Notes: generated by a model not told the origin, from the letters alone. A stretch of DNA of 58,775 nucleotides, filler included, from Sphacelaria rigidula (GCA_964200075.2; 6 parts of 6 records of this genome joined end to end with filler, not necessarily neighbours in it); one strand, 5' to 3'; numbered from the whole stretch's first letter, positions 9,714-54,888 are shown. Program-made: numbers and translations.

Positions 9714-9813
9714 NNNNNNNNNNNNNNNNNNNNNNNNNNNNNNNNNNNNNNNNNNNNTTAATTAATTAANNNNNNNNNNNNNNNNNNNNNNNNNNNNNNN
9801 NNNNNNNNNNNNN
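9714..9813. other. Artificial contig linker
   Basis: 44 N + TTAATTAATTAA (stop in all six frames) + 44 N. Confidence 0.98.
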
Positions 9814-19526: not shown

Positions 19527-19626
19527 NNNNNNNNNNNNNNNNNNNNNNNNNNNNNNNNNNNNNNNNNNNNTTAATTAATTAANNNNNNNNNNNNNNNNNN
19601 NNNNNNNNNNNNNNNNNNNNNNNNNN
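19527..19626. other. Artificial contig linker
   Basis: N44-TTAATTAATTAA-N44. Confidence 0.98.
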
Positions 19627-29339: not shown

Positions 29340-29439
29340 NNNNNNNNNNNNNNNNNNNNNNNNNNNNNNNNNNNNNNNNNNNNTTAATTAATTAANNNNN
29401 NNNNNNNNNNNNNNNNNNNNNNNNNNNNNNNNNNNNNNN
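29340..29439. other. Artificial contig linker
   Basis: N44-TTAATTAATTAA-N44. Confidence 0.98.
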
Positions 29440-29586
29440 GGTCCGGCGAATCCCGGCGTGCTCCGTCCCGGCTTTGTATGGATGCGAGGTCAATGGTCTT
29501 ATGACAATGGCATGCATGATCATGAGTACACCGCCCCCCCCCAAATTCATAAAGATGATGTATCTTGAATATGTGGGGTGTCTCAC

Positions 29587-32500
29587 GGCGTTGTTTGCCC
29601 TTTTTTGCCGTAAGGCCGCTTGAGTTTTGGCCGCCTCGCTCTTCACGGACTCCGTCGTGGTAGCAGCGTCTTCTTCCAGGGCCTCGGGAGGAGCGACTCG
29701 GGAGACTGCCGCCGCAGCAGCAGAGGCTGCCTTGGCGGCGTTGAGGCAGGCAGCGTGCAGCAGCAAACGACTCCATCCGCGGAACAGCAGACATTTTTCA
29801 TTATCCGCGCACACGCGGGCGATCTGCAACGTGCAGGCATGGGAGGTACCGTGATCAACAGCTACGACCATCACGGACACGAGTTCCTAGATGTACTTGA
29901 ACAATACTGCTGATACCGCTGCTGTCCTCGCTACACACGCCGCATAGCCGCACGTAGCTTTATCTGGCAATGCTGTACTGTAATATCAGACGGAAAGTGA
30001 ATGTCCGTCGAACGCCCTTGCTGGATGTTGGGCAATCATGATTTCATCAAGAAGTCGGTGAGTGGCGCAATGTTGCGTATTTTTAGTACTCCAACCACTC
30101 GATGACGGGCTGGGTTATCGTCGACACAAACTGGTCAACGCGTAGAAGCGAGTTGTGTTCGCGGGCGCTGCGAGAGGATGCAGAGGATGCGGGGCCATGT
30201 GAAAGCAAATGGGAAACTCGTCCGAGTGCAGGAAGAAATAGATAAGTCAGAGACACAGAAAAATAAACTCCTGTTTTCAGGATATCCGGCGGTTTACAAC
30301 TGGTAGCAAGCACAGTGCCGTTCAGTAGGAAAAACGTTTCAGACGTACTGGGTACAAGCTTACGCTCATCGCCACTTCTGCAACAGCGATACCATCAATC
30401 GTATCGCTCCCCTTGCTTCAAGGAATGACAAGTATCTGCGTGCTTCGCTCTTCCTAAATCAATCCATGTTGACCCTGAACCCGTCCCCATCATCCTGCTG
30501 GCCCATGATTGCAGTGACATACATGTTCGATCCTGACCCCGAATCACACTTACAAGTCGTGCCGCACCGGAGTTTCGCGCCGTATCGTGGAATTCCTGAT
30601 GATCGTCACAAGCGACGGCGCCCGCAGAGACAGCCGCCGCAACCCTACCGGATTTTCTTTTCATCCCCTTCGCCGAAGTGGCTCGTGTGGTGACACAACC
30701 GGCGCCTACCGCTCCCTCGGCGACATGTAGGGAGGCGACATGAAGGCACAGGCGGCTCCAACCCCGAAACATGAGCCGTTTTTGCTTATCAACACACACG
30801 CGGGCGATCTGACCCAGAAGATTAAAACACGCACGAGCAACAAAACGCGGGTGGAAGAACGCGGGAACACCACAGGCGAAAGCCCGCAATATCCACGTGA
30901 GGCACGTACTAAACGAACGTAAGCATTCTGCGTCACACACCGTGTTTGGCGATTTCACTGATACGAGGCGTGGAACTGAACGATTGTCTGCTTATACAGT
31001 CAAATTTCAAGCATAAGGTATTCAGTTGGCGAATGATTGGTGTTCGCCCAATTTTCATGCGCCAACACTCTTCTGGCCTTGCAGTATATGACTCACCTTT
31101 CCAGTACGGCTTTCGGTTCAGCATAATCTCGGTATGTGTATGCAGACATTACGCGTGCAGTCGCAACCTCGCTACATTCTGACGCAGTGAGCGGTACGTA
31201 CGTTCTACATTGCGTGCGTAAATTGTCTGAGGCAACGGACACATTCTTGTCAACTACAGAGTAGGGGTTAGTTACGTTGATCAGAGTAGCGAAATCACTA
31301 CGATGATGATAGGGTCTGTCCAACATCTACAGCATTGATGACGCAATCGCGTTATGTTTCAGAAACTTTTACATTGGCAACCTCTAGAATGTGCCAGTGG
31401 CGTATCCGCGTAAGGGCTTCGGTGGTGACGACATTTCATCCACAAGGATATTATGCATGATTGCATCACCCCGGTCGCACGCACTGTTGAATGGGTGGTG
31501 AAACTCTGGAAAAAAACGTCGAAGTGGTCAAGATCCTAAAAAGCTATAGGCGGGAACTGAAATACACGCTCATCGAACGATAACGAGTCTTTAATTCACG
31601 GTTGTGGTGATATTCTAGGTTTGAGGAAGGGTCCGTTTCGTCAATAACGTGTGTGTAGTAGTAAGATTTGCTTTAACATCACACCAATGCATCAGCGATA
31701 AAAAAACGTCCGCTCACTTTGACGGATTTTCCCCTGGTAGTTGCTGTGAACGGGCCACGATTCTAACCCAGGACCATGTGGTCACTAGTAAACTAGATTT
31801 TTCTCCTAGTGTCGCCAATATAAAAGGGGGAAGGTCGTCGATAAACAGTTGTGATGATTCAGCTCCTCCTATAGCTTGATACTCCTTTTTGGTTCTGACC
31901 CGACTCACAAAACCAGCATGAACTAGTGTGGATGCACGAAGATCCACGGTGTTTGTACCGAAACATTGTCGTCTCACCATTCTGCCGGCCTTATGCTGTC
32001 TGTTCGCCCGCATGAGCTTCTCCGCCTTCTCCGCCCTTTCGTTAAGCTCTGTCGGTACCATCGAAACCCCTGTTACTTGTTGAACCCCCTTACTCGCTGT
32101 CGCTCCGATCCCGGCGGCTCTCACCGCAGCAGCGGCGGCGTTGAGGGCGGCACTGTGTACGCACAATCGGCTCCACGCGCGGAATACGGACCGTTTGTCC
32201 TTCTCGCGTGCCCACCGAATAATCTGCAAGTGTCGTTGGGGAATAATGAAAATAAAGCATAAATCCAAAAATATATATAACCGCACGGGAAAACGTCAAC
32301 GTCTGGCTCGGACAGTTTTGAACGAAACTTCTGAGAGTTTTGTCCCCGCAAAACCTGAACACTTTTTAAAATGAAGCGGTATATTTGAAAAAGAGATGTA
32401 TCGATACGTAACCGACCCTCCTCGTCTATCTTCAACAAATGGAGACACCGTGACCTTTTACGTAGTGATCTACTATTCCATGTCGGTCAGGGTAGAAGAA

Positions 32501-35500
32501 GCTAGCCGTCTACGAAACGAGGAAGGGTGAAGGCATGTTGAGCACAGTAAATGCCTCATGAGCGTTGTGCAATGCTTCTGTTGACTGGCATCAAACGCTG
32601 CAACGACATAACGCCAGAATTCGGCGTTGTGAAACAAAGCAATTGTCCTCAGTATTGATGAAAATGACCGCCCAGCTGCCTCGAAATAGATACGTTGCCT
32701 TTAAACACACCTCCTTCGCGTTCATTATTCACGGGAAACATGTCTTTCATAATTCATGTCGGAATCGACAAGGTGTAACTACACGATTTGAGGTATTACC
32801 AGGCGCTTCGCCTCATTAATCCGCTGTCTCTGTTCATCGTGCTCTGCCATCTCCGCCCGCCTCCTCTTTCTCGAAGCTACATCAGCAGCAGCAATGGCTG
32901 CAGCGGCTTCTCTTTCCATGGCATCCGCCCTGGTGGCTCTAGCCGTGGCTGTAGTGGCCACCTCTTCTGCCTCAGCGACACAGAGTGAGGCGGCGTGCAG
33001 ACATAGCCGGCTCCATCCACGGAATAGTCGGCGCCTATCTCCGTTCCTACAAACGCATGCAATCTGGGTACGTGCACGTGTCCCATGAATGGGCATGGGT
33101 TTTGACGGGATATGGTTCAGCACGGGGTTTGAAGTGGGAGGTATAGTAGATTTGAAGCATGTGGGTGGTGAGAGCATGATACGGCATTAATGTAGGAGGG
33201 TCGGTTGGATGGTTCGATAGGGGGGAACTTTGGGACATTATAATAATTGCAGCATTTTTTGGCGTTTTGTGAAAGAAAGAGTCCCTAGTACAACCCCCCT
33301 ATTCCCGACTAGATATCATTAGATACCGAAAGCGTACTCACCTGCCGGGCTGCGAATTGGCGTTTCTGCTGAACCGTATCTAGTCTACCACCTTTCCCGT
33401 ATCTTCTAGCCTCCGGCCCTTGAGCAACAGCCGTGAATACTCCGTCCCGTCGAGATGCTGCCATTGTTTCTCGGGATGCCGCATTGCCAGCGATATCGGC
33501 GGCCTCCCGTTCCATCGCGTTTGCCCTTGCAGACCGTGCATGGGGCGTAGCAGCGGCCGAATCCCCCCCTGCGTCGGTGGAGGAGGCTGCATTGAGACAG
33601 AGTCGACGCCACCCGCGGTACAATAGACGATGATTGTCGCTGCTGGTCATCCGAACGACCTAGCGAAGCGAGCACAACAGGTTTTCCCCACAAGCAAGGA
33701 CGAGCGTGTTTTAGAGGTTACTTTGCCGACACGAGTCGCATAGTATTCTGATGCTGTTCGACTCTCTTCGAAATGCTGCTCCCTAGGGATTGGAGCTCTG
33801 ACACGGCAAGGTGAGCTACAGCAAAAAATGTGGATGCACGGAGGAAATGAGAGCCAGAACGCTCCAAGGGAACAGCGTATCAGCCCTGGTCGTCTGCCGC
33901 AGCTTTAACATGTACAAACCGACACGTCGTACTCTCACCTATTCGAAACCTGTGGCCACGGGCAAATGTACGACTTCGGATGCCCTTGGCCTTTTGAGCG
34001 AACTATAATCTCACCAAAATACCCAAAAACCGGTGGCGATGTTTCCGAAGCGCTCCCTCTGCCTCTTCCGTCCTCTTCCGTAGATCCTCCACCCCTGTCG
34101 CCGTTCCGGTTGCTCCAGACATCGTTACTTCCCTCACCGTCGCAGAATCCGCGTCTAACTTTATTCGTTCACCCATATGTTTCCACACCTCCACCTTCTC
34201 TTCCGCAGCGGCTGTTTGCCTCTCTAGCGCTTCAGCGCGGGCCGTTCTCGCCACAGCAGCGGAGACAGCCGCCAATCCCTCAGTAGCGTTGAGGGAAGCC
34301 GCATGGGAACATAGTCGACTCCAGCCCCGGAAAATAAGACGACGTTCTCTGATTCGCCACCCGTTCACAATCTGACGATGTAGCGAAGGGAGAAAAGCGT
34401 GGCCATGAGCTGCGTCTTCATTGCCAAGAAATGGGCAACCATGGTTCGAGTTGTTTCAATACGTGAAATATTCATCAGGGCCTTGAAAAAGTGTAATGTG
34501 GACAAGCCCGTAGCTCTCGTGCGCGGCGTCTCAGGTGTCAGCGAGCCATGAGAATCAGATTCACCCCCAGCGGCACCGGTGTCGAAGGAAATTCCTCTAG
34601 ACTACACGTTCCGTAGAGCTCCTGCTGTCTTCAATTCGACCGTAGCTACGTCATAGCAGAATACACCTACGCACGCTCGACCGGGACAGCGCTAACAACC
34701 ACGGTGCAAACTCGATAACGACACTATGCACAAGCTTCTCACCAGCCGTATGGCGAGGTGCTGCTGCTGCTGCTGCTGCTGCAGTTGGGCGTTCAAGACT
34801 CTGGAGTGATTGCTTTTCCACGAGTAATGATACCCTTTTCGCCCCTGTCCAACGCCGTTCTCAACGAAGTGTTTGTCGACGTAGTCCACGGTTGCTTCTC
34901 CAGCAGCATTTACAGAAGCAGTGTGCACGCGTAACCGACTCCAGGCCCGAAAAAGTGAGTGCGTTTCTCTTTCCCTGCAAACGTGATACAACTGTTCATG
35001 CAGAACGAATAGACGCATGGTGAGCTGTTCTTGTTATTCCAGACAACCGATCGTTCACATTTTAAAAAGTTCATCTTCGATAGTTTCTGGGTGTGTCAAC
35101 GCCACGGCTCTGGTGGCGTTACTGTCGTTAGGCATTTACGACACACGTTATCTGCGCTGGAAGGCCAGACGTTTCCACTGTTCCCCGAATATAGATACAA
35201 TAAACCGACGTTTGAAACAGATCCCAACCTCACCAGGTGTGCAGCTTGTCGTTGTCGATCCCATTGCTTTCCCCCTGGTTCCAGTTTCACCGCATCGAAT
35301 GATGCTGTGGACTGCCCCCTGGATATTGTCGCCACCGTTGGGACTTTCGCGTTGTTAGAAAGGCGTGCAGCCTCCCAGGTGTGCCGACAAAGGCGAATCC
35401 ATGCTCTAGTTTTCGCTTGCTTCGTGTACTCTCTTGAGTATCGAGCAATCTGAGAAGGCATGTACATATTTTCCATTGAAAAGCATTCCCGAAAGGAGTT

Positions 35501-37826
35501 AATACAAATCAGGGCCTTGAGAACATCATCCAACTTTCGCTATACTCAACCGACATGGCAAGTTCATTTTGATATCGTTTCCCCGAGTTCTATCCGTTAC
35601 AAGCGCCTGTAACAACGGCATTTCCTCCACAAATGAAAACGATGACTTATTCCGGCCCGCAAAACATCTCCCAAAAATAAGAGCCTTTACTCGGCCGTAT
35701 AATACGAAAATAGCAATGTTCAACTAGGTTAGCTCATTTTGTGCTTGAAATTCGTTTTTCAAATAAGCAAGAATTGCCGCTACTTCACTTCGAGAAGAGC
35801 GTAGCGACGCCGAAAGTGGTCCCCGAAACACGCACCTCCTCCCAAAGAGAATGGCAGAAAAAATGTGCATCAAACATCGTGTTGAAAGACCCCGAAGTAA
35901 AGTGCTACGAAAGTGATAATATGTACACAGTACAACAGAGTTAAAGACATGGGCAGGTGGTGAACGACACAAACAGTTGAACATAGAGTATCTGAAAATC
36001 GGTCAGGCATTTCTTGCATGTTGCCTGGAACTTATGTTACTGTAGTTTCAGACGATAAACGAGTCAGTTTTCTCTAAATATTTCACTGTGCTCTGTCACT
36101 CACCAGTCGACGCATAAGAGTCTTTCGCTTTGTTCGATCTCCGGAGTCACTGCTTGACTTTCGAGTCAAACTATCGTTGTCGGCAGCGATTGGTCCTCGT
36201 TTGAAAGGACCGCCGACTGCAGATCCATGGGATGGGGCAGGAGAAGATTTATCAGAGGAACATTTCATCTCTTGAAGCAGATCGACGTCGGCGAATCCGA
36301 GATGGCCTGCCAAAACTTGGTTTAACCGGCGCATGCGATCAGCGGACAATCGCCGCTCGCGGTCCACAAAGTCTTGTTGCTGCTTCGTGAGAAAGTGCTG
36401 CCAAGACGTATGCCAAGTGCAGGATGAAAGGATGAAAGGATTGAAGGAAAAAGCAACATCACGACACACGAGTACGCTTGCTGTCGTTGTGTTTCTTCAA
36501 GAAAAGCGTACGTTGTAGTAACAACCGAAGTAAGACCAGGCACAAGCGTCGCGGTCAGTAGATATGCTGCAAGATCGGGACTTCGGACCACTGGATCACT
36601 CGAGAAGTACAACTTCCCTCAACCCCCTACTACAACCAACAGACACACGAAGAGCAGTCATCGCTGGAGCAAGGTTCATTCTCCTCAACGACGATACCAG
36701 CGATGGACGGATAAATCGCACCTACTCTAATGAAACTCACTTCTCTGAGTGTCCCAATAGCAGGAAGAGAACCAGCTGGTATAACCGGTGGCGGCGGTAC
36801 CCCGCCGGAGGACACGTCGCTCACAGAAAGCGTGTCCAGCAAGTCAAGGCCGCCATTCCATCGCCTGCGATTATCGCCAATTCCTTCTCTGCTGCTAAAT
36901 TCACCTGTACTGTAATGACCCCCAACATCACTTATGTCGCTGCCAGCACCGTTAGCACTTTGAGTGGCGCCCTCATCATAACCATGGTCTTGCGTCCCAC
37001 CTCGTTCATGCCGTTGACTAAATGAGTCCAGATCCCCCTTGTCTTCATGAGTTGCTGGGGGTATCCCTTTCGACCTGGATATATGGTGTCTGAAATCTCG
37101 AGCGTCCGCTACATTTGACCTCGATGGTCGACGATCGGGTGTAGATAGTGGAGAGTTGAGCGGGGCGTTATCGTCCCAGGATTCCTCCAGCGCAAGAAGG
37201 CCATCACGTGCCGCGGCCACGGCGCGGTCGAAGGGCCAACTGCTCTGTAGTCGAGGGTGATTCTGCGGCTGCGGTCGTCGTCCTGTGGTACTCGCCCTGA
37301 CGGTGAAGCCGTCGATAGCGGCAACTTCTCTTGGGCGCTTTCGGGTAGTTGTAGAAACATGATCCGAAGCAGTATTGATATCGCTATGGGGAATACTCCC
37401 CTTTCGGGAAAGACTCCCTCTTGAAAAGTTGGGATCACGATCATCGTTGGAGGCCGTGTTGTTGCCAAGCCGTTGACGCTGCGATTCTGAATCCTCGAGG
37501 CTTGAGCCCATCTGCGTGCCAGCACCCCCGCCGCGTTTTGCGCTGCTTGCGGTGCCCCCAAAGTTTTCATGATCAGCGGAGAATAGTAGCGGCGCATCGC
37601 TCACGGGGGATAGACCAAAGCTATCCACTGATGGTGTGTTCCTGATGCCACCGTGGCCATGGCGGCCGTCAACAGCTGTCGCAAGGTCGTGTCGTGTAGG
37701 ATCGGGATCTGCCTGTGTTGGGAAGGATGACAGCAGGCCGACCCCGAATCCAGAGGGCTCGCTGATGGAAACATCATCTCCTGTTGCATACGGTGACAAG
37801 GAATCGGCCGTCACATCTGAATCCAT
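29587..37826 (-). CDS. Uncharacterised large protein: disordered N-terminus followed by at least 8 exon-encoded 'LFRGWSRLCxH' helical repeats (Sfi1-like?), 3' truncated
   Basis: Exons 37826-36741, 36397-36104 (acceptor may be 36379), 35449-35234, 34991-34743, 34371-34015, 33659-33342, 33063-32800, 32223-31978, 30808-30554 and 29823-29587. All introns are GT-AG, all exon lengths are multiples of 3, and the exons are stop-free. Confidence 0.85.
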
Positions 37827-39151
37827 CGAGTTTTATGTTGTCCTCTCGAATGAGAAGAGGTATGGTGATGCATTAGGTGAGGCACAGTGCACCAAGATCG
37901 CTGATTCGGATAATGACATAAAGGTAGCAGAAAGAGATCGAGAGAGAAAGTGACGACGCCTTGATATTTTACACATACATGCAGCAGATGTTATGTTCAT
38001 CTCCCATAAATTCACTTCTTGTGAGACTTTGATCCGAATCATGGTTCGTTTCACTGCCCTTGGACCTACCCCACATATTATATATCAACTGTTTATTCTA
38101 AAACATGTGTCGACCGTGGAAAATAACAAAAATGTATAGACTTGCATTAATTTATCATATCGCACAGACCTGTGGTTAGCGAAGGTCAGCTCGCGCCAAG
38201 GTCAGTTCGCTATCGGTCTGTGCATACACACCATGGGCCGCCGGAGGACTGGGATCTATGGCGTTGCTTCCACTTTTGATCTCAGGTGCTCTCTGTGTCG
38301 TTTGTAATACCGAAGCCCATTGTGTGCGCATTTGCGTGTCTGTTTGTGTTTGATCGGTAAGTGCAGTCCAGTCACTCCATCACCGGTAAGCGAGTATGCT
38401 CAGTTCGTCGTCGTGGAAAGGTTTTCAGCAGTGCTCTCGAGTACATATTACGGTACTCCTGAGAGGGAGCAATGCCTTTTCGGGATTTTAATTCCATTAT
38501 ACGGTGCCCGCAGTTATGTTGGCCTTGGCCCCTCACATGCAATCTTTTGATAGTTTGGTTTTCAATCGGGAACCACCAACCATCAGCTGTCAAATTTCGA
38601 ACTGAGATATCACCCCTGATTACAAATGAGGAGTATGATGTACGAGTCATGAAAGTGTGTAAGTGCAGACAAGGGTATCTGACGCTGGAGGACTCTCGGT
38701 ATTACCGTATCCATACAATAAACGATGTAAATTACATGATTTCACTCCCTACACTTCAAAAACACCCTCTTCTAGACCGTTGTTACACTAATCCGCCAAT
38801 GACTTACTCCCGACTCGGGATCTGCCCGCAACTCCTGCCAGGGACTCCTGTAGTCATCGCGTCATGGCGATCGTGCTCTGAACAAGCTCACATCTACTCG
38901 GAGAGCGTGATCACTACCGACGTGCGGTGCAGCGCACCCTCCCTGTGTAGGCCCGTCCCTGGATGTTGTGCAAGGCGACTCCTCTCAAAACACGCGGAGG
39001 GTGACAGTTGGGTAGACACCACTTTGCACAATTTTTTTCCATGACCCCAAGTTGTGCCGGCGTGCTTTTTTATCGTAGTCAACGACGCTACAGTAGTCAG
39101 CGTCAGAAGTTGTCAGAATTCGTAGTCGTCCTTTTTTCTGAGTTTTTCTGG

Positions 39152-39251
39152 NNNNNNNNNNNNNNNNNNNNNNNNNNNNNNNNNNNNNNNNNNNNTTAAT
39201 TAATTAANNNNNNNNNNNNNNNNNNNNNNNNNNNNNNNNNNNNNNNNNNNN
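39152..39251. other. Artificial contig linker
   Basis: N44-TTAATTAATTAA-N44. Confidence 0.98.
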
Positions 39252-39594: not shown

Positions 39595-41367
39595 CGATAT
39601 ACAGTGAACCATATAACTTAGGGTCACCGGTGGCATCTACAGCAAAAAGTAGAGGCGAAGATATTCCATACGATGGAAGCACTAGCTTGTTTTTGTTTTT
39701 GTTTTTTGTTTAGGGGGGCAGTGTCGGGCACGTCAACCATATGGGCGCGAGACCCCGCCATTTGGACCTTGAAGGATCACCTGTATGAAAAAGAAAGTCG
39801 TCATGTTAGTACACGCTCTATCCCACACCATCTCATCTCCAGGTGTCGAGAGAACATGACAGTGTTGACCAGTTTGAGTGTCTAGCGTTGTTTGAGAGTG
39901 AGAGCTTTATGATTCGCTCTAACTTGACCATTTTCTTGTGTTCTGTGTTCGTGTTATGCCCGTTAAACTGTCGTGTGCTTACAGCTACACGTCGATATCT
40001 CATCAAAGGCTTTAGTCTCGAGCTACTTCAGAAAGCGTCCTACTCGTATATGACCTGGAGGGGCATTTCGCAAGTGAAGGTGTTTCAGGCATTGACAAGC
40101 ATAGACCATTTTATAGAAGTCTGGAGTTCTAGACTTCCGCTGATTGACGAGGCCAATGCATTAATTAGTATATACATTGGATTCGTTGATCCTACGCCTA
40201 ACAGCTTTCATTCGAGCCACTCCTCGCCTGGCTCTGCGAAGGATTCCCGGAGAAACACCAGTCGATGAAGGGATGAAGATTTCCCATTTTTGGGGTTCTC
40301 ACTCTCCTTCAAACGCTAGATCCTCCATCTGGCGAAAACCCTGTTGGATATGCGTTTCGGTGGAACAGAGTATGGAGTATCCCCGTGTTACTGTTTCATG
40401 ACTGGTCCTTGAGCTGTTTTGTGGTATTTGTTATGTGGCTGCCGAGGGGAAAGCATGGCGCGTCACGACCGTTTGTTCGAAAACACGGGTACAGCTACAA
40501 CCTAGGTAATGGCTATGGCTCTCTCAAGTCTCATCCTGCCACGTCTCGGCAGTTAAGTGACTCTTCTTTTTTTTTTTTGCCGAGTCTCCGATGTTGGTTG
40601 GGCAACACGCCATATACCAGCCAGGCTGTGTCTTGTAAAATTATTTCAGTGTCGAAAACGTGCGATCGAACCGAATTCGCTCCTTTCTGATTCGTCCACA
40701 CAGGCCGTGCCTTATCAAAGTGTTCTTGACGCAAAAAAGTATGGTGGAATCGAATTGGTCGCTACGAGGCCGCATCAGATACGTTCACGGCATTTATGTT
40801 GTCAGATCGCTTCAAGTCCATTTTAGAATTAGTTGCGCGCGACAGGCAATGTCGAAAACAGGAGAGCGTAGCTGTTTCGAGCGAAACGAGCAACGAAGCA
40901 GCACGTAGCTTGTATGTTGCAGACAACCGTGCCAGATGCTACCCTTTCGCAGAATAATGCGAAACCCAAATAGTTTATTCGCAGCTACCCACCCAACCCC
41001 GAGGCGAAGATCACGAACTGAGCACAGGGGTACATACACTACAATGAAGTAAACCGACGCCACCACCCTTTTGGCATGACGTGTTTCTTTTCGTTGGCGA
41101 AAACTCGGGTACATTTGGCGACTGAGCACCGGTCCGAAGAACATATGGCGACTGAGCACCGTTCTGAAGAATCAATATACAGTGGATCTTCATTCGCTGA
41201 TTCGTCAACGAAGTTCTCAAAAACAGAACCATTGATCTTTGAATTTGTTCTGCGTTCCAAATTCCGTTCCTCATACCGGTGCTTGGTGAATAATCCATCT
41301 TGACAGTCCCGTCGCTTCGCTCCGCTCCCTGCCCCATCAACCGCGCATCCTCTCTCACAATTCAAAC

Positions 41368-43089
41368 ATGGAGAACAACAACAACATGAAAGCCAACAAC
41401 AGCAACAGCAACAACGACAAGAGCAGCAACAACATGGAAGCCAACGAAAACAACAGCAACATGAAAAATAACAGTAAAAACAGCAACAACGACTCCAGCA
41501 CCACTATCAGCAACAAGGAAAACACCGGCAGCATCAACCATAACAAGGAACATCACAGCGGCAGCAAGACGGCCACTGCCGCAGACAACGTGGCGATGAT
41601 GCGAAGTGCCCCGGGAGACACGCACTGCCGTGACGACATCAATCTCTCTGCCCCAGTCCAAGTCAAGCATGCGGGTGCCCCCAAAGATGCCAACAAACTG
41701 TACAAGGTGGCAGCGCGCAACCTCCGTCACGACTACGGGGTGCAGTCCATGACCCCCGCCAACCTCAAGAAGACTATGGCTCTGCTCGAGCTTCGCCCTC
41801 GCCGCCTCGTGGTGCACGGTTTGGCCTCCCAGCAGCTGCTGAGAGGAAGGAGCCGGCAGGATACGCTCGAGTCTGAAGGCGACGACACCAATGCCATGGC
41901 CTCGGCGTGGGAGTGCCTGGATATCAACAACGGCGACAGCAGCGACAGCCACGACGGTGATGGGAGAGAGATCCAAGAGGACATGACTGATGGCGGTTCT
42001 GATGATGGGCAACAGCCCCCTGGAGGAGACAGCAACTCCGACTCGGACTACCACGACAACAAGGCTCAACACCGCCGTGGAGACAACAAGGCAAGACGCC
42101 CTATCCACACGGCCCTGATCACCGGCGGCATCGACATACGCCCTTGCGAGACCGGGCTCCTGCTTCACGCCCTCGGTGTGGGACCTGGTCGTCTGGTGCG
42201 ACTAGGGCTGGTTGATCATGAGGCCCTGGGCGCCATGCACGGAGAGAGGGACCGCCGTCGTCACGGTGTCCAAAAAGGGCGGCGCCGGAGCGGCCACTCG
42301 CTCGCTCACCCCGCTTTCCCTCCACCGCGTCCTCATGGTCATGGTCACGGTGGTGGTCACCAGCGCGGCGGTAGCGGAGACGAGGGCCGCTATGGGCGTC
42401 ACGGCCCGTGCCACCGCAGGCTTGAGCACGGTAGCCCTTCCCACGGACACCACGGCGGGCTGCGGCAGGGCGCCGCGTGCTTTTCCTGCTGGCAACCTCA
42501 TGGCCCTCATGGCCCTGGTCGCTACGGCAAGGCGCACGGCGAGATGCACGGACGGCGCCACGGCGGGCCCAGGCGCGGCGGGCACAATATGCACGGCGGA
42601 AGCGGAGACGAGCATCGCCACCCGCCCCACGGCCGCGTTCAACGACGCGGCGGGCCGGAGCACGGCGGACGGCCTTGCGGTCATCCTTGTCCGTCGTGGC
42701 GCAGAGGTGGGAGTCCGCCATCGCCACCACGTCACGGGCCGGGTCACCGCGGCGGACCGATGTGCGATACGAGCGATGATGACCACATGCACAGGCCTCT
42801 CCGTCACGGTGGGCGTTTCCGTGGACATGAAGGCGGGCCCAGACGTGGCGGGATCATGCACATACGGCTGAGCGACGAAGATTCGCCCGGACTTGCTCGT
42901 CATGGCCATCGCCGCGGAGACCACGGCCACCCGATGGAGCGCGAGGGTGGTGAACACGAGCATGTCCGCCGTGGGGCTCATGGGCGTCATGGACCGCCGC
43001 ACTGCGGACATCTTCACGCTCATCGCGCCGCCAGTGGCGGCGGAGGTCGTGGGGCGAGGAGGATGGGTGGACACGTGGTGGCGTACTAG
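41368..43089 (+). CDS. Intronless 573-aa low-complexity protein (Asn-rich N-terminus, two 'LxxxPxRLVxxGL' modules, His/Gly/Arg-rich C-terminus)
   Basis: Long GC3-rich ORF with start context caaacATGg. The internal motif appears twice: LLELRPRRLVVHGL and ALGVGPGRLVRLGL. Confidence 0.75.
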   Translation: MENNNNMKANNSNSNNDKSSNNMEANENNSNMKNNSKNSNNDSSTTISNKENTGSINHNKEHHSGSKTATAADNVAMMRSAPGDTHCRDDINLSAPVQVKHAGAPKDANKLYKVAARNLRHDYGVQSMTPANLKKTMALLELRPRRLVVHGLASQQLLRGRSRQDTLESEGDDTNAMASAWECLDINNGDSSDSHDGDGREIQEDMTDGGSDDGQQPPGGDSNSDSDYHDNKAQHRRGDNKARRPIHTALITGGIDIRPCETGLLLHALGVGPGRLVRLGLVDHEALGAMHGERDRRRHGVQKGRRRSGHSLAHPAFPPPRPHGHGHGGGHQRGGSGDEGRYGRHGPCHRRLEHGSPSHGHHGGLRQGAACFSCWQPHGPHGPGRYGKAHGEMHGRRHGGPRRGGHNMHGGSGDEHRHPPHGRVQRRGGPEHGGRPCGHPCPSWRRGGSPPSPPRHGPGHRGGPMCDTSDDDHMHRPLRHGGRFRGHEGGPRRGGIMHIRLSDEDSPGLARHGHRRGDHGHPMEREGGEHEHVRRGAHGRHGPPHCGHLHAHRAASGGGGRGARRMGGHVVAY

Positions 43090-44296
43090 AGGAGATTCGT
43101 CTGATGAACACGTGTTTCCACGGGGCTTGGGCTGGGTGACGAGGAGCTCAGTGGAGTCTGCAGGATACACTGCAGAGAGGTGTTCTTTGTTATCTTCTTT
43201 TCGTAGTTTCATTTGCAAATGTGGCAGAGGCGTCTCTCGGTAAAACCGATACGAGGGATGGGGAACCTCTGTCCGTGTGCAATTGCTGTTTTTTTATGTG
43301 TGTCTACACACACACGACGTCGGTGGCATCGACTTTCGGTCGGCGTTCGTGGCCGTCACGGGATGCGAGCGGAGGTGGCCGCAGCCACGGCGTGCGGACG
43401 GCGTGTGGACGCGGGGGGGTCTGGTCAATGGGGGTGAGCCGGCTTGGGATTGGAGAACACGGGCGGGTGAGATTTGGGTGTGGTGGTGGGGTTGACGGGC
43501 GGGGTTGTGTGATTTCGAACTGCATGTCACGCAAGACGCGAAAATAATACACGTGAAAAAAACAATGTATGTGATGCATTTCGTCACTGCTGGACAAGGT
43601 CTGTTGTCTACAGCCGGAGTGGTCGGGGGGATTGTGTGGGTTGGTGAAGGTTTTTTAGTGAGTTGGAGTCTCACACTGCCTGCGATACGGACTACCACGG
43701 TACAGCACACATGTGCGGTAGTGGCATGTGTCCCGACGTTGGCGCCTAAGCCGGAGCGAGAGATGGCAGCCTGTCGGACTGTCTTGCCTCTCGCTGGATG
43801 GGTCCGTGATGAGAGCATGCATGCTTCCACCACGGTAACCATCATACGAAAGCGAGCGATTCTATTATTCGTTCGTATAAGTATCGGTGAGAGGTTTTTT
43901 GTCCTAGTTTTCCTGCAGAGGGAAACCGAAAAAAAAAAAAAAAGTGGTGCATTGATAGGTCACACGTGTGTAGGCGCCCGGATGGAGTGGCCGCAACGCG
44001 ATATCAGCGACGTGCGGAAGCGCATGTTTTTTTTCGGTTGGAGGAAGCATACCTGCTGCGAACGCGATCTTGTGTGCTGAGGCAGTCTAGTTTTGGTTCG
44101 TGAAGTGTGCGTCGTCTGTTTTTTTCCACCTGAATCTCGCGCATTTTGTGTATTGTGCGTCTGTTCTCCGGAGTCGGCTGAGTTGGTGGCCTCCTCTTCT
44201 GAAGCCCCGGCAGGTGCTTGTCGGGGGTACCCTTGGGACTAGAACTCGTCCGTCGCCTCACGTCCGTATCAGGTTGTTGCTCTCGTTCATATTTTC

Positions 44297-48963: not shown

Positions 48964-49063
48964 NNNNNNNNNNNNNNNNNNNNNNNNNNNNNNNNNNNNN
49001 NNNNNNNTTAATTAATTAANNNNNNNNNNNNNNNNNNNNNNNNNNNNNNNNNNNNNNNNNNNN
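48964..49063. other. Artificial contig linker
   Basis: N44-TTAATTAATTAA-N44. Confidence 0.98.
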
Positions 49064-49162: not shown

Positions 49163-50873
49163 CAGGTGTCGAAATTTTTCGCACACTGGCCGATACAATA
49201 TGTTTTCGATATATATTAGTCGATCATATTGGAGTTTTGCGACATATTGCCGGCGTAATAAATATATATATATATATATATCGGTACCCTTCGGCTGCAC
49301 ATGTATTGCGCGCCCAATATATATATATATATATATTGATCCCGTGGGATTGTACACATATTGTCAGATCAATTAGGTAAATATAATATCTATTGGGGCA
49401 GTGTGGGTGCCGACATTTTGACCGACCAATATATATTGGGGTCACATTGGTAAGAGCATATTGACCTGTCATTACATATTGGAGCCACGTGGGTGCCATG
49501 GTATTGGCCGGTCAATATATATATATATATATATATATATATCCTTATAAGTATAGTGTACGCTTTGAGAAAAATCCAGAGGAGATGGATCCCGGAGCCC
49601 GTGCAGATTGGGAAAGGTTTCAAAGAAGACCACAGAAGTTCGCGTGCATTGCTACGGAGAGTTGTCGAATGCGTTTGATAAATACTTCGAAGTATATATG
49701 TATGTATATATTGGCCAGAATATGGTGACAGGAGAGGCGACCCGGTACATATGCCTTTTGATGCCTATCTGGCCACCGGTGCGGGGCCGCCCATCCCCTT
49801 CAAAGTATAAAATATATCTTGGCTAAACATCACGACGACAGAAAACGCGGGTCTATATGTGCCTTTTGGTACCCCTGTGATCACTGGTGCTGTGTTGCTT
49901 ATACCCTGGACAATACAATATGTTCCAATACGATACCAATACTTTGTATTTGAGACAGCGCAAATATTGTCCTTTCAATTTATATTGTGTTGATATGTCC
50001 TCGGAGACATTGAAGCAACAGCATATATTTCTCGTGTCATGATCGTGAAGTAATATATGACAATATGTATGTTGGACATGCAGTTGCTCCGGGAACAAAA
50101 CATTCTATATATATTGTGCATGACGGCCTTGTATGTACTGAAATGTCAATATATACATATATATTGAGTCGAAGCGATGCGTAACATATCGTTACCATAA
50201 TATATATTGAACACCAACCATGCAAAAGTATTGTTTTTCCAATATATATTGCGCATGTTCATCGCATGGCTGTTGTGCAGCCAATGTATATTGAAAACGC
50301 TCGCGGAGGAATATATTGAGCATTTTCGGCATGTAGTGATACATCTTTTATTGGCGCCCGTAGGCATGAAACTGCCCACCGAACTAATTGCGATACACTT
50401 TCCAATTTACATGTCGAATCATCAATATAATTGCTACACCGATATGTATTGTGACCGTCCGTTCCCTCGTGTGTTGTCCGCCCAATATATATTGGACGCA
50501 TTGACGCACGACATGTTGGGGCGGCAATATATGTTGACGCTTCGGGTGTTGAGTATATTGAACCGCCAACATACATTGACCTCGTGTAGCAGTCAATATA
50601 TTACCCGTCAAATACATATTGGTGCCTTGCCGCATCAACATATTACTCGGTCAATATATTTTGAGGTGGCGCGTGTCGTGACATATTGTTTGGTCTATAT
50701 ATATTGCATGTCACGAGCCATGACATATTGATGGCACAATATATAATGACCTGTCTCTTGTGCGATCATATTGCTCGCCCAATATATACTGACAACTCGA
50801 CGCGTCGACATATTAAGCGGGAAATTATATTACATATTGTTTTGTCCAGGGTGTAAAATATTTCGGACACCTG
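49163..50873. mobile_element. Degenerate TIR element densely filled with CAATAT/ATATTG motifs
   Basis: Left end caggtgtcgaaatttttcgcacactggccgatacaatatgt resembles the reverse complement of the right end (caggtgtccgaaatattttacaccctggacaaaacaatatgt). No TSD seen. Confidence 0.6.
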
Positions 50874-50946
50874 GGTCACGGACAAACAACAAACCTTCAT
50901 AGAAGGGGGCGAAGGGAAGGGTTACCGTTGTACATATATTCCATAC

Positions 50947-53900
50947 CTCCTTCATCTCCCTCAAAAGCATAGCGGCTTGCTCGTTCCGCCCTTCACCTGC
51001 GCAGGCAGAGATGGCCGCAGCATAACTGGTGGCGGTCGGCTCAATACCGACCGTCTGCATCTCCCGAAACAGTCCCAATCCCAGGTCCCACTGCCGCCCC
51101 GCCCCGCAAGCCAAGATCGTGGAGGTATAGCTGTCCTCCGAGGGTCGGAGGCCGACGGTGGGCATCTCCCTCAACAGCGCCAAGGCGAGCTCCCACTTGC
51201 GAGCCTTGCCGCAGGCCGTTATGGCTGCGTTGTAGCAGAATCGATGGGGGGGCACCCCGTCCTCCCTCATTTCTCTCAAAAGGTTTCTGGCTTGCTCCCA
51301 CCCCCGTTGGTCGGCGCACGCGGATATCACCGAGGTGTACGTGAGACTGTTCGGTCTCAAGTTCGAGCCCGTGGGTTTGCTCCTCATCTCCCTCACCAGC
51401 TCCAACGCTCTTCCTAGTTCTCCCGCAACGCGGCACGCGTCGATGCAGGAGTTGTAGCTGGCCACATCCGGCTCGATGCCCACGTCCGGCATCTCCCTCA
51501 ACAGGCTCAGAGCCAGATCCAACTGTCCGGCGTTTCCGCAGGCCACCATGGCAGCATTGTAGCATATGGTATTCGGTGAGACGGTGGGGGTACGCATCTC
51601 TCTCAAGAGAGCCAAGGCTCGCTCCCACTCGTGCGCGTTTGCGCACGCCGAAATGACAGCGCTGTACACGTGGGCGTCGGGGCTTACCCCTGCTTCCGTC
51701 ATATCGGCTAGCAGGACTAACGCAGTCTTCCACTCGCCCGCGTCCTTGCAGACGTTTATCGCCGCGCTGTAGCTGTAGACGGACAGGCGGATATCCGCCT
51801 TCCGGAGCTCCCGCAAGAGGGCTACTGCTTGTTCCCACTGCCCGTCACGTCCCGTCGCTGTGATGCATCCGCTGAATCTAAAGCTATCGAGATCGAGCTG
51901 GGTCGTCGCCAGCTCTCGTAGGAGGCTCGCCACTTGCTCCCACTGGTCTGCCTTCGACAGAGCCGTTATCGCCGTGCCGTAGGCTATCTCGTTGGGGGTG
52001 ACGTTCACAGTCAGCATTTCTCGCAAGAGGCCCAGGGCCTGCCGCCAGTCCCCCGCTTGACCGCACGCAAACATCGCGGCGCTGTAGCTGATCACGTCCG
52101 GGTCGAGCCCCGCCTCGGGCATCTCCCTCAAAAGATCGACCGCCTGTTTCGCCTCACCGCAGTTCCCGCACGCAGACAGCACGGTATTGTACGTCACCAC
52201 CCCGGGGCGGACGCCGGCGGCGGCAGCCATATCTCGGAGGAGGCCCAGCGCTTGCTCCCATCGGTTGCCCGTCTTGCAAGCCGCGATGGCTGCGTTGTAG
52301 CAGTCGTCGTCTCGGTCTATACCCGCGCGCGGCATCTCTTTGAATAATTGCAGGGCTCGTTCCCACTGCCCGCTGTTTCCGCACGCTCGAATAGTGTACA
52401 GATAGCTTGATCGCTCTGGGGGCGGGGAAGGGGCCACCGATCCAACTCCCATCTCTTTCAGGACCCCCATCGCCGTTTCCCACTTTCCGTCCTTTACACA
52501 GCTGCGTAGCACCATATCGTAGCACTTTCTGTCCGGCGGAATCCCGGCTGCCTGCATCTCTCTCAGCAGGGACAGCGCCTCTTGCCATCTGCTGCAACTG
52601 CCGCAGACTTCAAGCGCACAGGCATACACGGAGGCATTGGGGATTACGCCCGCGTCTGTCATGTCGCGGAGGAGCGCCAGTGCCTTTTCCCACTGGTGGT
52701 CATTCCCGCACGCCTTGATAGCCATACCGAACGCCACGTCGTCCGGCGGGATACCCGCCGATGACATTTCTTGTAGCAGCTGCATCGCCTCCTCCGAGTA
52801 CCCCTCTACTTTCCCGCACGCCACCATTGCAGAGGTATAGGTCAACAACTCTGGCTTCACACCTACACCCGGCATCTCCCTAAGGAGACCCAGGGTCTGC
52901 TCCGCATTTCGGCTGTCACAGGTCGCCGACATGGCTGCATTGTAGCTAACCGTGTTCGGGGCGATCCCCTTTGCCGTCATTTCTCTCAGTAGAGACAGGG
53001 CCATCTCCACCTGAGAGCAACGCCGGCACGCCGTGATGCACGTGTTGTATGTGCATGCATTGGGCGCTATCCCCACCGTCGACATCTCCCGCAGAAGTTC
53101 CAAAGCCATCTCCCACTTCTTAGCCCTAGAGCAAGCCGCCAGGGCCGAGTTGTAGCTGGTCGTCGAAGGCGAAATCCCAACATCCGGCATCTCCCTGAAA
53201 AGCGCGACAGCTTGCTCCCAGTCGCCTACTTTCCCGCACGCAGACAACGCCCCATTGTAACTGTACAGATCCGGCGCCAAACCCTTCTCAGGCATTTCCC
53301 TGAGCAGGGCGAGGGCATCTTGACACCGCAAGACTTTGGCGCAAGCCGATATGACCATGTTGTAAGTAACAGCGTTGTATTTTATCCCCCGCTGTCTATT
53401 TGATTCGAACACCTCCAAAGCTCGCTCATACTCCCCGGCTCTCATACACGCATCGAGGGCGCAGTTGATGCAGTAGGCATCCGGATCCACGCCCGCACTG
53501 TGCATCCTCTCCAGTACGTTGACCGCCTGTGGCCATCTCTTGCCTTTCGCAAAGAAGGCCAGACAGACGCCGTACATGTGGAGCATTCCTGCGACGCGCC
53601 CGGATTTCGACGCCAGCGATATGATGTGCTTCTCTGCCGCATCGAGCTCTTGCAGAGCTCGTTTCCAGTTCGATAATGGCAACAACTTGACCGTTTTCAC
53701 GAAGCGGCGGTGGGTGGCGAAGATCTCCCTGCTTGCGTTCACTTTGCCCCTGCTGCTGCGTGTACCACCCCCCCCCCGTTGTGACCACTTCGCTTTGCGT
53801 GCTATTGCTATTGTTGATTGGCCGCTGTCCTCTAGTGATAATCTACCAACAATTTGAGCGCCTATGCTTGGAAACCATCGTTTGATGTTGCAATGAAGTG

Positions 53901-54888
53901 GTGCCCCGACGCGGATTGCAGCACCAACAAAATGGGGGATGCGCGACAGAGACATAGATTTGACGGGCGCGCGCGCGGGGGGGGGGGGTTGAAGGAGGGT
54001 TTTCGGGGTAGTTGCGCATGATCATGGGTGTGTGTGTGTGATGAAACAGACAGAAGAATGACCAGTGAGACAGCTTCGTTTTGATAACACAAGTTCTGGG
54101 CTGATATACAGCGTGCGGGGAGAGTTTTCTTGCCGGTGTTCTACAATCAAAGGCCGGCTTGTTGTGGTCCGGGGGAACACGGATAAGGAGGATTAGGGTA
54201 CGTCCAAACTACTGCAGAAAAAAACACATCGGGGTTGCTGACTGCGCCAATTTCGCCCACCGCGCACGGTATCACGGTGTACTGCAGCCATAGCAAGGAT
54301 CCATGGGTACTCGAACGAGACCTACACAGACGGCAGTAGGCGGAGAAACGCTTCCACACTGTGGGCAGGCTCTACTGCAATTGAGTCGACAGTAGCGAAT
54401 TGCCAGGTGTGGCGGCGTCCGCTTTTTCGCCAGAAACTCATAGGGGGTGTTATACACCATCACTTTAAGGACTGTATGCACATGATACTGCTGCGGCAGA
54501 GGAAAAAAACATGCGCAGCACCTCACGCCCACCCAGTTGAGCATACACCATACACACCTTCAGTGATCCCCGGCCGCCGAATCACTCCTAGTTTTCCCGA
54601 AACACGTCGGTCATCAATCTCGTTCGCCTGAGAGCTCAATACCGACTCTCTTCTACCAGCAGTGCGCACGCTTGCAGCAGCAGCGGGCTCGGCCGCGTGT
54701 GGCCGCCGCTGCCATACCAAGCCGTGGCGGTCCAGCTGCGGCGATCGATATTTGGGGTTGAGGAGGCGGACATTTTCTTGTGTAGGAATGGATGAAGGTA
54801 TGAACGCCGTGAGTTTCATTATTGGCATCAGGATATAGCAGGTGTGGGATATACATACGTGCTGTGAATGCCGTGTGAGGAGCATCAT
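50947..54888 (-). CDS. P-class pentatricopeptide repeat (PPR) protein, about 25 repeats, probably plastid-targeted
   Basis: ORF 50830-53955 contains 25 tandem ~35-aa motifs (e.g. SYNGALSACGKVGDWEQAVALFREMPDVGISP). Preferred model: exon 54888-54558 (donor G|gtgtgt, phase 1) spliced to 53861-50947 (acceptor catag|GC, donor GAG|gtatgg). The PPR identity is clear; the upstream exon is less certain, and ATG 53955 is the alternative start. Confidence 0.9.

Follow-up and report, generated by a model that had tools for sequence, protein, structure and literature searches.

An unnamed brown-algal gene with one repeat per phase-0 exon, predicted to encode a helical rod

A locus in Sphacelaria rigidula is approximately the 5' two-thirds of a real protein-coding gene of the brown-alga lineage that has no name and belongs to no described family. 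Its product consists of a disordered N-terminal region of ~360 residues, a short conserved segment, and tandem helical repeats, with each repeat encoded by one phase-0 exon. The reading that we prefer, with moderate confidence, is a lineage-specific helical rod with periodic putative docking sites that grew by exon duplication.

Gene model and repeat exons

The window, meaning the whole stretch of DNA analyzed (58,775 nucleotides with filler), contains a 10-exon minus-strand gene model of 1,174 codons without a stop, and all of its introns are phase 0 and bounded by GT..AG. The exons and the spacer that cuts the gene are listed below; P0001 is the Scytosiphon protein.

36741..37826, minus strand: first coding exon, 362 amino acids; tblastn of P0001 residues 1-318 onto 37826-36741
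36104..36397, minus strand: second coding exon, 98 amino acids; P0001 residues 318-379, 53% identity
35234..35449, minus strand: repeat exon E1, 216 nt; degenerate motif TRAWIRLCRH
34743..34991, minus strand: repeat exon E2, 249 nt; motif LFRAWSRLRVH
34015..34371, minus strand: repeat exon E3, 357 nt; motif IFRGWSRLCSH
33342..33659, minus strand: repeat exon E4, 318 nt; motif LYRGWRRLCLN; TAG acceptor
32800..33063, minus strand: repeat exon E5, 264 nt; motif LFRGWSRLCLH; GTAATA donor
31978..32223, minus strand: repeat exon E6, 246 nt; motif VFRAWSRLCVH
30554..30808, minus strand: repeat exon E7, 255 nt; motif MFRGWSRLCLH
29587..29823, minus strand: repeat exon E8, 237 nt; motif LFRGWSRLLLH
29340..29439, no strand: artificial spacer (44 N, TTAATTAATTAA, 44 N) that terminates the 9.7-kb piece with the gene

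The first coding exon starts with an ATG at 37826, has an in-frame stop two codons upstream, and ends at a phase-0 GTGAGT donor. It is rich in Ser, Gly, and Asp and is little conserved except for its first ~11 residues and the Pro-rich patch that closes it (SSGG.PPPPV.P.G.LPAIG; 21/31 identical by BLASTP). The second coding exon opens with the conserved segment ..DRERRLSADRMRRLNQVLAGHL.., has no Pfam match, and ends ..MRRL, like the repeat exons, before another phase-0 GTGAGT donor. The alignment of P0001 covers both 5' exons and every repeat exon but E1, which pairs with the equally degenerate first repeat of the Scytosiphon protein (variant TRGWIRM). P0001 aligns nowhere else in the window, and no other piece matches it: the 3' part of the gene is absent from the window. 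The model is open at its 3' side, where the spacer cuts it at 29440, and E8 terminates at a GTGAGA donor; therefore, at least one further exon is expected beyond E8. None of the runs listed is recorded as RNA, and the one guessed to be RNA covers 38256-39142 only.

An earlier note had described eight phase-0 exons with one shared layout, and the coordinates (35449..29587, minus strand) and size range (216-357 nt) that it gave were recovered. All eight are multiples of three with an open frame, the AG acceptor lies exactly 16 codons before a Trp, and each exon closes on a phase-0 GT donor. The seven introns between them have five GTGAG donors, one GTAAT, and one GTAAG, and their acceptors are CAG in six cases and TAG in one. 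The variant KTRAWIRLCRH is present in the exon at 35449, as reported. Six of the eight exons have ends of the kind that the note described (AIRL, AARQ, AKRL, AGRM, AARL, AAHL); E3 ends in GIL and E8 in NNA. E2 opens with TTG (Leu) and holds a CAG-run poly-Gln at about 34750-34792. The long form of E3, with its donor at 34015 and not at the in-frame GTGAGG at 34138, is favored because P0001 aligns through to 34042. A second in-frame GTGAGT donor is possible for E6 at 31909, but it is mismatched to the exon end of the family.

Motif conservation, relatives, and array growth

A six-frame scan of the whole window with [LIVMFYKT][FYLIVMT]R[GA]W[SRI]RL gave eight matches, all on the minus strand (35413, 34955, 34335, 33623, 33027, 32187, 30772, and 29787) and none outside the eight exons. 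The looser pattern R[GAS]WxRL also gave eight, whereas 200 shuffles within 500-nt blocks gave 0.31 on average and never more than 3. Over their first 36 residues, the eight exons align gap-free, with R15, W17, R19, and L20 invariant, and protein identity over this stretch is 25-61% among E2-E8. The invariant residues use varied synonymous codons (four for R15, four for R19, and six for L20), third-codon-position identity between repeat exons is 0.14-0.50, and the seven introns have no cross-hit among them at E<=0.01. Selection acts on the motif at the protein level. Across 164 units, positions 14 and 21-27, left free by the picking pattern, are 78-93% conserved, and the residue after the Trp is Ser in 76% of the units. 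The motif is unchanged in a strain diverged by ~1% (a run labeled algae metagenome), whose ORF fragments P0004-P0007 retain it. Constraint on the exons outside the motif looks weak because the exons occupy ~1/3 of the span and take 11 of the 40 listed differences to this strain (a further 53 differences lie outside this count).

Related proteins, annotated as 'unnamed protein products', come from Scytosiphon, Pylaiella, and four Ectocarpus species and carry 7 to about 20 repeats; all nine named sequences belong to Ectocarpales. Among 1.84 billion representatives, a 42-position profile of the eight exons detected 133 proteins at E<=1e-3, of which 59 reached E<=1e-10, and a word-index search returned P0001 (446 bits) and P0002 (443 bits). 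A further 133 clusters are unspliced single-exon fragments with the same intron position. In unspliced fragments from other assemblies, 94 of 101 units have Q or K immediately before the exon start, which is consistent with a CAG/AAG acceptor at this position. One repeat per phase-0 exon, as the earlier note had it, is real here and common to the whole family. The locus is a conserved but unnamed brown-algal gene. Brown algae evolved complex multicellularity independently, and a large share of their proteome is unannotated.

Pfam gave no match for 16 queries (10 window pieces and P0001-P0003 at E<=10; P0143-P0145 at E<=1) with HMMER filters that drop most matches above E ~0.1, and LRR, TPR, Roc, COR, and NB-ARC were found in no exon or relative. 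PDB sequences gave 11 weak matches and no significant one. At the level of sequence, these searches show no match to any known family. The failure to assign the repeat to a known domain is borne out by a family with neither a name nor a Pfam model.

The exon-encoded units measure 72-119 residues in this species, and their unevenness argues against a strict ruler. Spacings in the relatives are 79-205 residues (Trp to Trp, 79-159 in P0001 and 86-205 in P0143), measured on automatic gene models that read through introns in places (P0001 ~1280-1300 and 1440-1460). Spacings of exactly 116 residues occur five times in succession in Pylaiella and four times in E. fasciculatus, with near-identical units in both, and a three-repeat higher-order unit is present in Ectocarpus sp. 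12. The exact tandem units and the higher-order unit show that the array grew in relatives by tandem duplication of exon units, as had been proposed.

Predicted fold and putative docking module

AlphaFold2 modeled P0009 from a 119-row alignment as one continuous 177-residue helix (residues 2-178) with a pLDDT of about 96; by 10-residue block, the pLDDT was 92-98 up to residue 170. Sequences that form coiled coils also typically score a high pLDDT when modeled as a lone long helix. When 362 residues of P0001 were run as a single sequence, six long helices resulted (pLDDT 62), and the helix breaks between repeats, in or just before CSER/CGER turns. The array is predicted to form one continuous alpha-helix through the exon junctions. 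This predicted rod would rise ~0.15 nm per residue, or ~17 nm per canonical 116-residue unit.

The spectrin repeat is a three-helix bundle of ~106 residues with a conserved Trp near position 17 and a helix that continues into the next unit. The likeness to the present repeat lies in an all-helical unit of about 106-116 residues, a Trp near 17, and a helix running between units. The spectrin repeat was rejected: there is no Pfam row, and the deep-alignment AlphaFold2 model is a straight single helix, not a three-helix bundle. Mid-unit length, which varies from about 45 to 90 residues in the Sphacelaria rigidula gene, also sets it apart from spectrin.

In the preferred reading, each unit would combine a ~55-residue hydrophobic, basic, and highly conserved module that spans the exon junction with an Ala/charge-rich spacer of variable length. 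The module would read ..QLRR.KML / I.RVC..RD..L.FRGWSRLCLHAASL, where the slash is the junction. Of the 25 large hydrophobic residues in the 116-residue unit, only 4 fall in positions 28-88. Fourteen consecutive residues are conserved round every face of the predicted helix, and hydrophobic power at periods 3.5, 3.6, and 3.67 gave z values of -1.1 to 0.9 in nine of nine 35-residue windows, by a crude test that uses the Kyte-Doolittle scale and a consensus of only 11 units. The module is read as a site that a small partner may enclose because of the all-face conservation over 14 residues and the lack of a heptad seam in this test. By analogy with light chains on a lever arm and centrin on Sfi1, we infer that it may be a docking site for a small partner protein, a reading drawn wholly from composition and from the pattern of conserved positions. 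On this view, the rod would serve as a scaffold along which partners are bound at regular intervals. Up to about 20 near-invariant 14-residue motifs are kept on the predicted continuous helix while their surroundings drift, and such a pattern usually reflects a specific, important protein contact.

IQ lever arms are also one helix with regularly spaced basic hydrophobic sites enclosed by small EF-hand proteins, a binding mode that the brown-algal rod may share. The IQ consensus is [ILV]QxxxRGxxx[RK], and this pattern had 0 matches in all seven sequences searched (the window model, P0001, P0002, P0143, P0144, P0145, and P0009). The sites are 72-205 residues apart here compared to 23-26 in IQ lever arms, and the repeat protein, unlike those, is without a motor or other domain.

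The main alternative to a docked scaffold is a self-associating coiled-coil or helical-bundle fiber, comparable to rootletin, lamin, or tropomyosin, in which rods would assemble or overlap with one another at the module. The confident long-helix model is consistent with such a fiber. Every structural look-alike is a protein with long helices (tropomyosin, lamin, rootletin, axonemal 96-nm-repeat proteins, and myosin Va 915-1100, the last at Z 8.7; Z>=8 in 12 of 48,161 chains), but a Z below ~13 for long helices may reflect only a common arrangement. The Ala-rich stretches also have a weak, non-significant likeness (E 1.8-4.8) to two peripheral-stalk helices, those of ATP synthase b and V-ATPase G. 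In contrast, heptad or hendecad periodicity was absent from all nine windows of the crude test, and conservation covers all faces, not the a/d positions only. We judge the coiled-coil fiber unlikely. If the protein were an ordinary structural coiled coil, it would still be useful as a marker of the lineage and would illustrate cleanly how an array grows by exon duplication.

A more specific version of the docking reading is doubtful as a whole. It holds that the protein is a brown-alga-specific giant rod, unrelated to Sfi1 but convergent with it, whose helix would run for hundreds of nm and present the 14-residue site (FRGWSRLCLHAASL) every ~17 nm to the clasp of a centrin- or calmodulin-like partner. 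The result would be a periodic, possibly calcium-responsive fiber whose length evolves fast via exon-block duplication, and a third brown-algal repeat-per-exon class that an earlier screen may have set aside as artifact. Docking of an EF-hand protein would make the family an independent invention of the Sfi1/centrin fiber type and a handle on the little-known cytoskeletal and flagellar-root structures of stramenopiles.

Sfi1, exon skipping, and other repeat-per-exon genes

A diverged true member of the Sfi1 family would bind one centrin at each Trp motif and form a calcium-responsive fiber at the flagellar apparatus or centrosome. Sfi1 repeats center on F/L-x-x-W at a spacing of 23-35 residues, and members are defined by the consensus AX7LLX3[F/L]X2W[K/R] and ScanProsite patterns (PMC2173958). 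The Sfi1-centrin crystal structures contain a long uninterrupted helix (PMC2063913). The earlier suggestion of an Sfi1-type repeat stands as far as this helix goes, which is solved for Sfi1 and predicted here. The likeness extends to tandem, basic, Pro-poor helical repeats with a conserved Trp (invariant here) and an aromatic residue or Leu (here Phe) three positions earlier, to non-conserved terminal regions, and to a repeat number that varies between species. The suggestion does not stand on the repeat itself. Kilmartin's three patterns (AX12[F/L]X2W[K/R/H], its paired form with a 21-34 residue gap, and the AX7LLX3[F/L]X2W[K/R] consensus) each had 0 matches in the same seven sequences, and Ser, not K/R, follows the Trp in 76% of units. 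Repeats recur every 72-119 residues here and every 79-205 in relatives, versus 23-35 in Sfi1, and the canonical unit of 116 residues versus 33 makes the period 3-4 times that of Sfi1. The conserved block runs on past the Trp (SRLCLHAASL), whereas the Sfi1 consensus stops at W[K/R]. The Pfam Sfi1 model (PF08457) returned no row for the 16 queries at the thresholds above, with filters that could miss a very weak likeness, and no Sfi1 chain is among the 11 weak PDB sequence matches. Membership in Sfi1 is quite improbable.

A single organism could also regulate the length of its rod by leaving out or retaining repeat exons. Each of the ten exons is symmetric (phase 0, with a length divisible by three), so that skipping any one leaves the frame intact. 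However, symmetric exons follow from growth by exon duplication and are not evidence of regulated skipping. The array is also identical in every DNA sample wherever covered: no exon-scale gain or loss occurs in X3 (all eight exons) or X5 (fragments), which are DNA runs with the same species label, or in the ~1% diverged run. Regulation by exon skipping is very improbable.

In a genome-wide screen, Zambounis et al. (2012) found the repeat-per-exon architecture 'overwhelmingly restricted' to LRR/TPR loci and called all five non-LRR, non-TPR repetitive-exon loci of Ectocarpus 'probably artefactual' (PMC3341825). That verdict would make the present exons a non-coding tandem repeat or a mispredicted gene, a reading close to refuted by open frames and canonical splice sites, by synonymous codons that keep the motif while third positions and introns are randomized, by conservation of the unit in 133 clusters and six named species, and by an unchanged motif in the diverged strain. 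The ROCO LRR and NB-ARC-TPR genes of the same lineage, as described there, encode each repeat in one phase-0 exon divisible by three, as do all eight repeat exons here, and their arrays likewise change via local exon duplication (PMC3341825). The exons are larger here (216-357 nt, versus 72 nt for LRR or about 126 nt for TPR), and the ROCO and NB-ARC-TPR products are solenoids whereas a helical rod is predicted here. The family widens the brown-algal list of one repeat per symmetric exon beyond the LRR/TPR immune-receptor candidates. Unlike the ROCO and NB-ARC-TPR exons, the Sphacelaria rigidula repeat exons are old and diverged and not recently shuffled.

The eight repeat exons of the minus-strand gene belong to a real, unnamed, lineage-specific family of helical repeat proteins whose motif is exceptionally sharp and whose layout of one exon per repeat is a textbook case.

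Repeat exons and the gene model

The earlier note had described eight consecutive phase-0 exons that each carry one tryptophan-containing module, and this observation was confirmed by the motif scan, open frames, splice sites, and exon coordinates that agree with those in the note. When all six frames of the 58.8-kb window were scanned with the motif, eight matches appeared, all on the minus strand between 29787 and 35413, and none elsewhere. The looser R[GAS]WxRL pattern likewise gave eight matches in the window, compared to a mean of 0.31 and a maximum of 3 in 200 block-wise shuffles. Each motif lies in an open frame: an AG acceptor precedes the Trp by exactly 16 codons, and a phase-0 GT donor follows downstream. 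The exons, numbered E1 (at 35449) to E8 (at 29587), are 216, 249, 357, 318, 264, 246, 255, and 237 nt long. Over their first 36 residues the eight exons give a gap-free alignment in which R15, W17, R19, and L20 never vary. The seven introns that separate them span 242–1,169 nt; they begin with GTGAG (five), GTAAT (one), or GTAAG (one) and end with CAG (six) or TAG (one). A CAG/CTG run at 34750-34792 within E2 encodes poly-Gln, and records in the read alignment seemed cut at this run.

The Scytosiphon promiscuus relative (P0001) was aligned to the window by tblastn, which located two more exons upstream of E1.

Upstream coding exons of the repeat gene
37826-36741, minus strand: first coding exon, 362 aa; begins at an ATG, and an in-frame stop lies two codons before it
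36397-36104, minus strand: second coding exon, 98 aa; ends ..RRL before GTGAGT, as the repeat exons do

The first of these exons contains a conserved RKR.RE patch, which might act as a nuclear signal. The ten exons are all phase 0, and joined they give 1,174 codons with zero stops. Six ~9.7-kb pieces make up the window, and between them, every 9,812–9,813 bases, comes a spacer of 44 N, TTAATTAATTAA, and 44 N; adjoining pieces may be non-contiguous in the genome, and the joins truncate genes.

Identical 100-base spacers
9714-9813, 19527-19626, 29340-29439, 39152-39251, and 48964-49063

The piece that holds the gene stops at 29440, 147 bases past the E8 donor, and P0001 had no matches in the other five pieces of the window. 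Therefore, the 3' part of the gene lies beyond the window, and eight repeats is a lower bound for the Sphacelaria rigidula gene.

Very high-copy elements lie at both edges of the gene's piece (29452-29542 and 38836-39151). For the first bin, word depth summed over contigs was ~1.4e5 to 1.8e6 in four runs, compared to ~5–30 for the gene itself in three DNA runs. Hundreds of distinct flanks occur, a poly-C tract follows 29532-29542, and the element in the intron after E8 is likely a short dispersed repeat. Elsewhere in the window, 50830-54021 on the minus strand is a single 1,063-codon open frame for a pentatricopeptide-repeat protein (PPR_2, E=1.5e-152, 20 stretches). Long overlapping open frames occupy both strands of 41290-43293, a GC-rich region (62% in 42001-44000): a plus frame of 599 codons that is His/Gly/Arg-rich and has no Pfam match, and minus frames of 363 and 279 codons. 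Either a gene of low complexity or an artefact of base composition could account for this region.

Conservation and members of the family

Pairwise identity among E2–E8 over the first 36 residues is 25–61%, third-codon-position agreement between exons is only 0.14–0.50, and no cross-matches were found among the seven introns. Judged by sequence, the repeat copies within the S. rigidula gene are ancient. The invariant residues are encoded by varied synonymous codons (four for R15, four for R19, and six for L20). In 164 family units, positions 14–27 (FRGWSRLCLHAASL) are each 76–100% conserved, and positions 14 and 21–27, which are free of the pattern used to pick the units, are 78–93% conserved. 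A run labelled as an algae metagenome holds the locus at ~1% divergence, and one of its contigs covers 29513-34418 with 42 differences and zero gaps. Reading frames from this diverged strain (P0004–P0007) keep the motif and have a few residues changed elsewhere. The retention of the motif with varied codons, across 164 units, and in a diverged strain excludes both a repeat that is non-coding and a mispredicted gene. These data show selection at the protein level that is focused on the 14-residue block.

A profile of the whole exons, run against longer proteins, gave no hits at E<=0.01 among 8,000 candidates. Ala-rich words probably crowded out the relatives in this search, because a profile trimmed to residues 1–42 of E1–E8 recovered two long proteins, which scored 446 and 443 bits. 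A second protein search with P0001 residues 480–980 as the query added three relatives, and one more was found by look-up. All six are annotated 'unnamed protein product'.

Long relatives of the repeat protein
Scytosiphon promiscuus: 1,652 aa; 42-residue profile
Ectocarpus sp. 12: 1,470 aa, partial; 42-residue profile
Pylaiella littoralis: 2,336 aa; P0001 480–980 search
Ectocarpus sp. CCAP 1310/34: 2,852 aa; P0001 480–980 search
Ectocarpus fasciculatus: 959 aa; P0001 480–980 search
Ectocarpus sp. 8: by look-up

Residues ~800–1100 of the Ectocarpus sp. CCAP 1310/34 model, in the middle of its repeat array, match a mitochondrial carrier and DHDPS weakly, which suggests that the model merges neighbouring genes or takes in genes nested inside an intron. 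An exhaustive HMMER search of 1.84 billion representatives returned 133 proteins at E<=1e-3, 59 of them at E<=1e-10. All 133 are 85–357 residues long, and the ones inspected are reading frames of one or two exons off unspliced contigs. A Q or K (CAG/AAG) directly precedes the exon start in 94 of the 101 fragment units with enough upstream sequence; among these units are three frames of the S. rigidula locus itself and five cluster members that are near-duplicates. The intron position is therefore common across the family.

One-repeat-per-exon LRR and TPR genes were established in Ectocarpus by Zambounis et al. 2012 (PMC3341825), and that paper describes such structure as 'overwhelmingly restricted' to these families. 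Five other Ectocarpus loci, neither LRR nor TPR, with long runs of phase-0 exons are called 'probably artefactual' (PMC3341825, Supplementary Table 2). One of the five, Esi0005_0287, comprises 33 exons with 26 phase-0 pairs in succession; 17 of the exons share one length, and the locus carries a 'cell surface antigen' signature that is Ala-rich (PMC3341825). This locus could be the Ectocarpus orthologue of the repeat gene; our literature search found no mention of it by name. The literature searched also held no published name for the family; the Phaeoexplorer supplements, outside this search, may list its orthogroup. The terms 'centrin', 'exon shuffling', and 'per exon' were absent from the main text of the Phaeoexplorer preprint.

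Predicted shape and comparison with known families

Ala makes up 19% and Arg 13% of the repeat region, in which 7 of 714 residues are Pro. AlphaFold2 modeled 362 residues of P0001 alone as six long helices at low confidence (pLDDT 62, pTM 0.22), and each junction is followed by a CSER/CGER turn, within or immediately ahead of which the breaks between repeats fall. A natural two-repeat fragment (P0009) modeled with 119 aligned family members gave a single unbroken helix at residues 2–178, with a block pLDDT of 92–98 through residue 170. Neither the exon junction, nor the motif, nor any of the three sites with Gly breaks the predicted helix, and the array is predicted to be a continuous helix. 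Of the 25 large hydrophobic residues in a consensus built from eleven canonical 116-residue units, 21 fall in positions 89–116 and 1–27, a concentration in a ~55-residue module across the exon junction, and the Ala- and charge-rich middle holds only four. Hydrophobic power at periods of 3.5–3.67 was no better than in shuffles in all nine windows of this consensus.

Residues conserved all around the helix, the basic and hydrophobic make-up, the apparent lack of a heptad seam, and the variable spacer fit a rod with periodic sites that would each be enclosed by a partner protein, much as EF-hand light chains enclose IQ or Sfi1 helices. We give this arrangement slightly better than even odds, and within it a centrin or calmodulin-like partner is a guess. 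The main rival is a self-associating fibre. A complex prediction with two copies of P0009, run without an alignment, scored 0.00, which weighs neither for nor against self-association.

The Sfi1-type label that the earlier note had entertained does not hold, as it failed on the published consensus, spacing, and search patterns. Kilmartin's Sfi1 consensus and search patterns, as given in PMC2173958, had no matches in seven sequences. Sfi1 repeats as defined there have K/R after the Trp, whereas the brown-algal units mostly have Ser, and the brown-algal period is three to four times that of Sfi1. The IQ pattern had no matches, and a literature search for Sfi1 in brown algae returned nothing relevant by title or abstract. 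Pfam gave no family for ten pieces of the window or for six relatives. The whole-exon profile and P0001 each had no matches among PDB sequences; a deep profile had 11 non-significant matches that reflect chance Ala-rich likeness only. Foldseek with the predicted model found no PDB matches at E<=10, and the ESM Atlas gave no usable match by features. A wide VIA-align search returned generic long helices only (best Z 8.7), matches that the tool rates as uninformative for long-helix models; no Sfi1 chain was among the 50 matches listed, which excludes nothing. A unit length of 106–116 residues and a Trp as residue 17 had suggested a spectrin-like three-helix reading, in which the EGAS, RGS, and CGER sites, each with a Gly, would form turns. 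This reading was dropped because the deep-alignment model runs straight through all three sites, and the variable middle of the unit further contradicts it.

Array dynamics and strain comparison

The number of motif matches per relative is 7, 11, 14, 16, and 21 in models of which several are partial or chimeric, and the arrays differ between species. Pylaiella and E. fasciculatus contain runs of near-identical units of exactly 116 residues each, which at the sequence level point to recent duplication or homogenisation, and Ectocarpus sp. 12 has a higher-order unit of three repeats. These near-identical runs and the three-repeat unit indicate recent tandem duplication in some species, and the proposal that the gene grew by duplication of symmetric exons with one repeat each stands.

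Two DNA runs carry the same species label. One (X3) covers all eight repeat exons with zero differences from the window, and the other (X5) is identical to the window wherever its short contigs fall. All eight exons are covered in the diverged metagenome strain as well, and the covered parts of these three show neither gain nor loss at the scale of an exon. A metagenome joint from 32149 to 32883 that skips 733 nt (E6 to E5) was discounted as a repeat mis-join; it occurs in one contig with 20 letters on the shorter side, and the tool itself warns of such mis-joins. Regulated skipping of the repeat exons is possible in principle. A run guessed to be RNA (X8) covers only the repeat element and 38256-39142, both outside the gene body, and says nothing on expression. 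Its contig at 38256-39142, upstream of the gene's ATG, is a candidate transcript of 887 bases with zero differences that overlaps a 193-codon plus-strand frame with no Pfam match. The diverged metagenome strain has a 25-base insertion at 38615, upstream of the gene.
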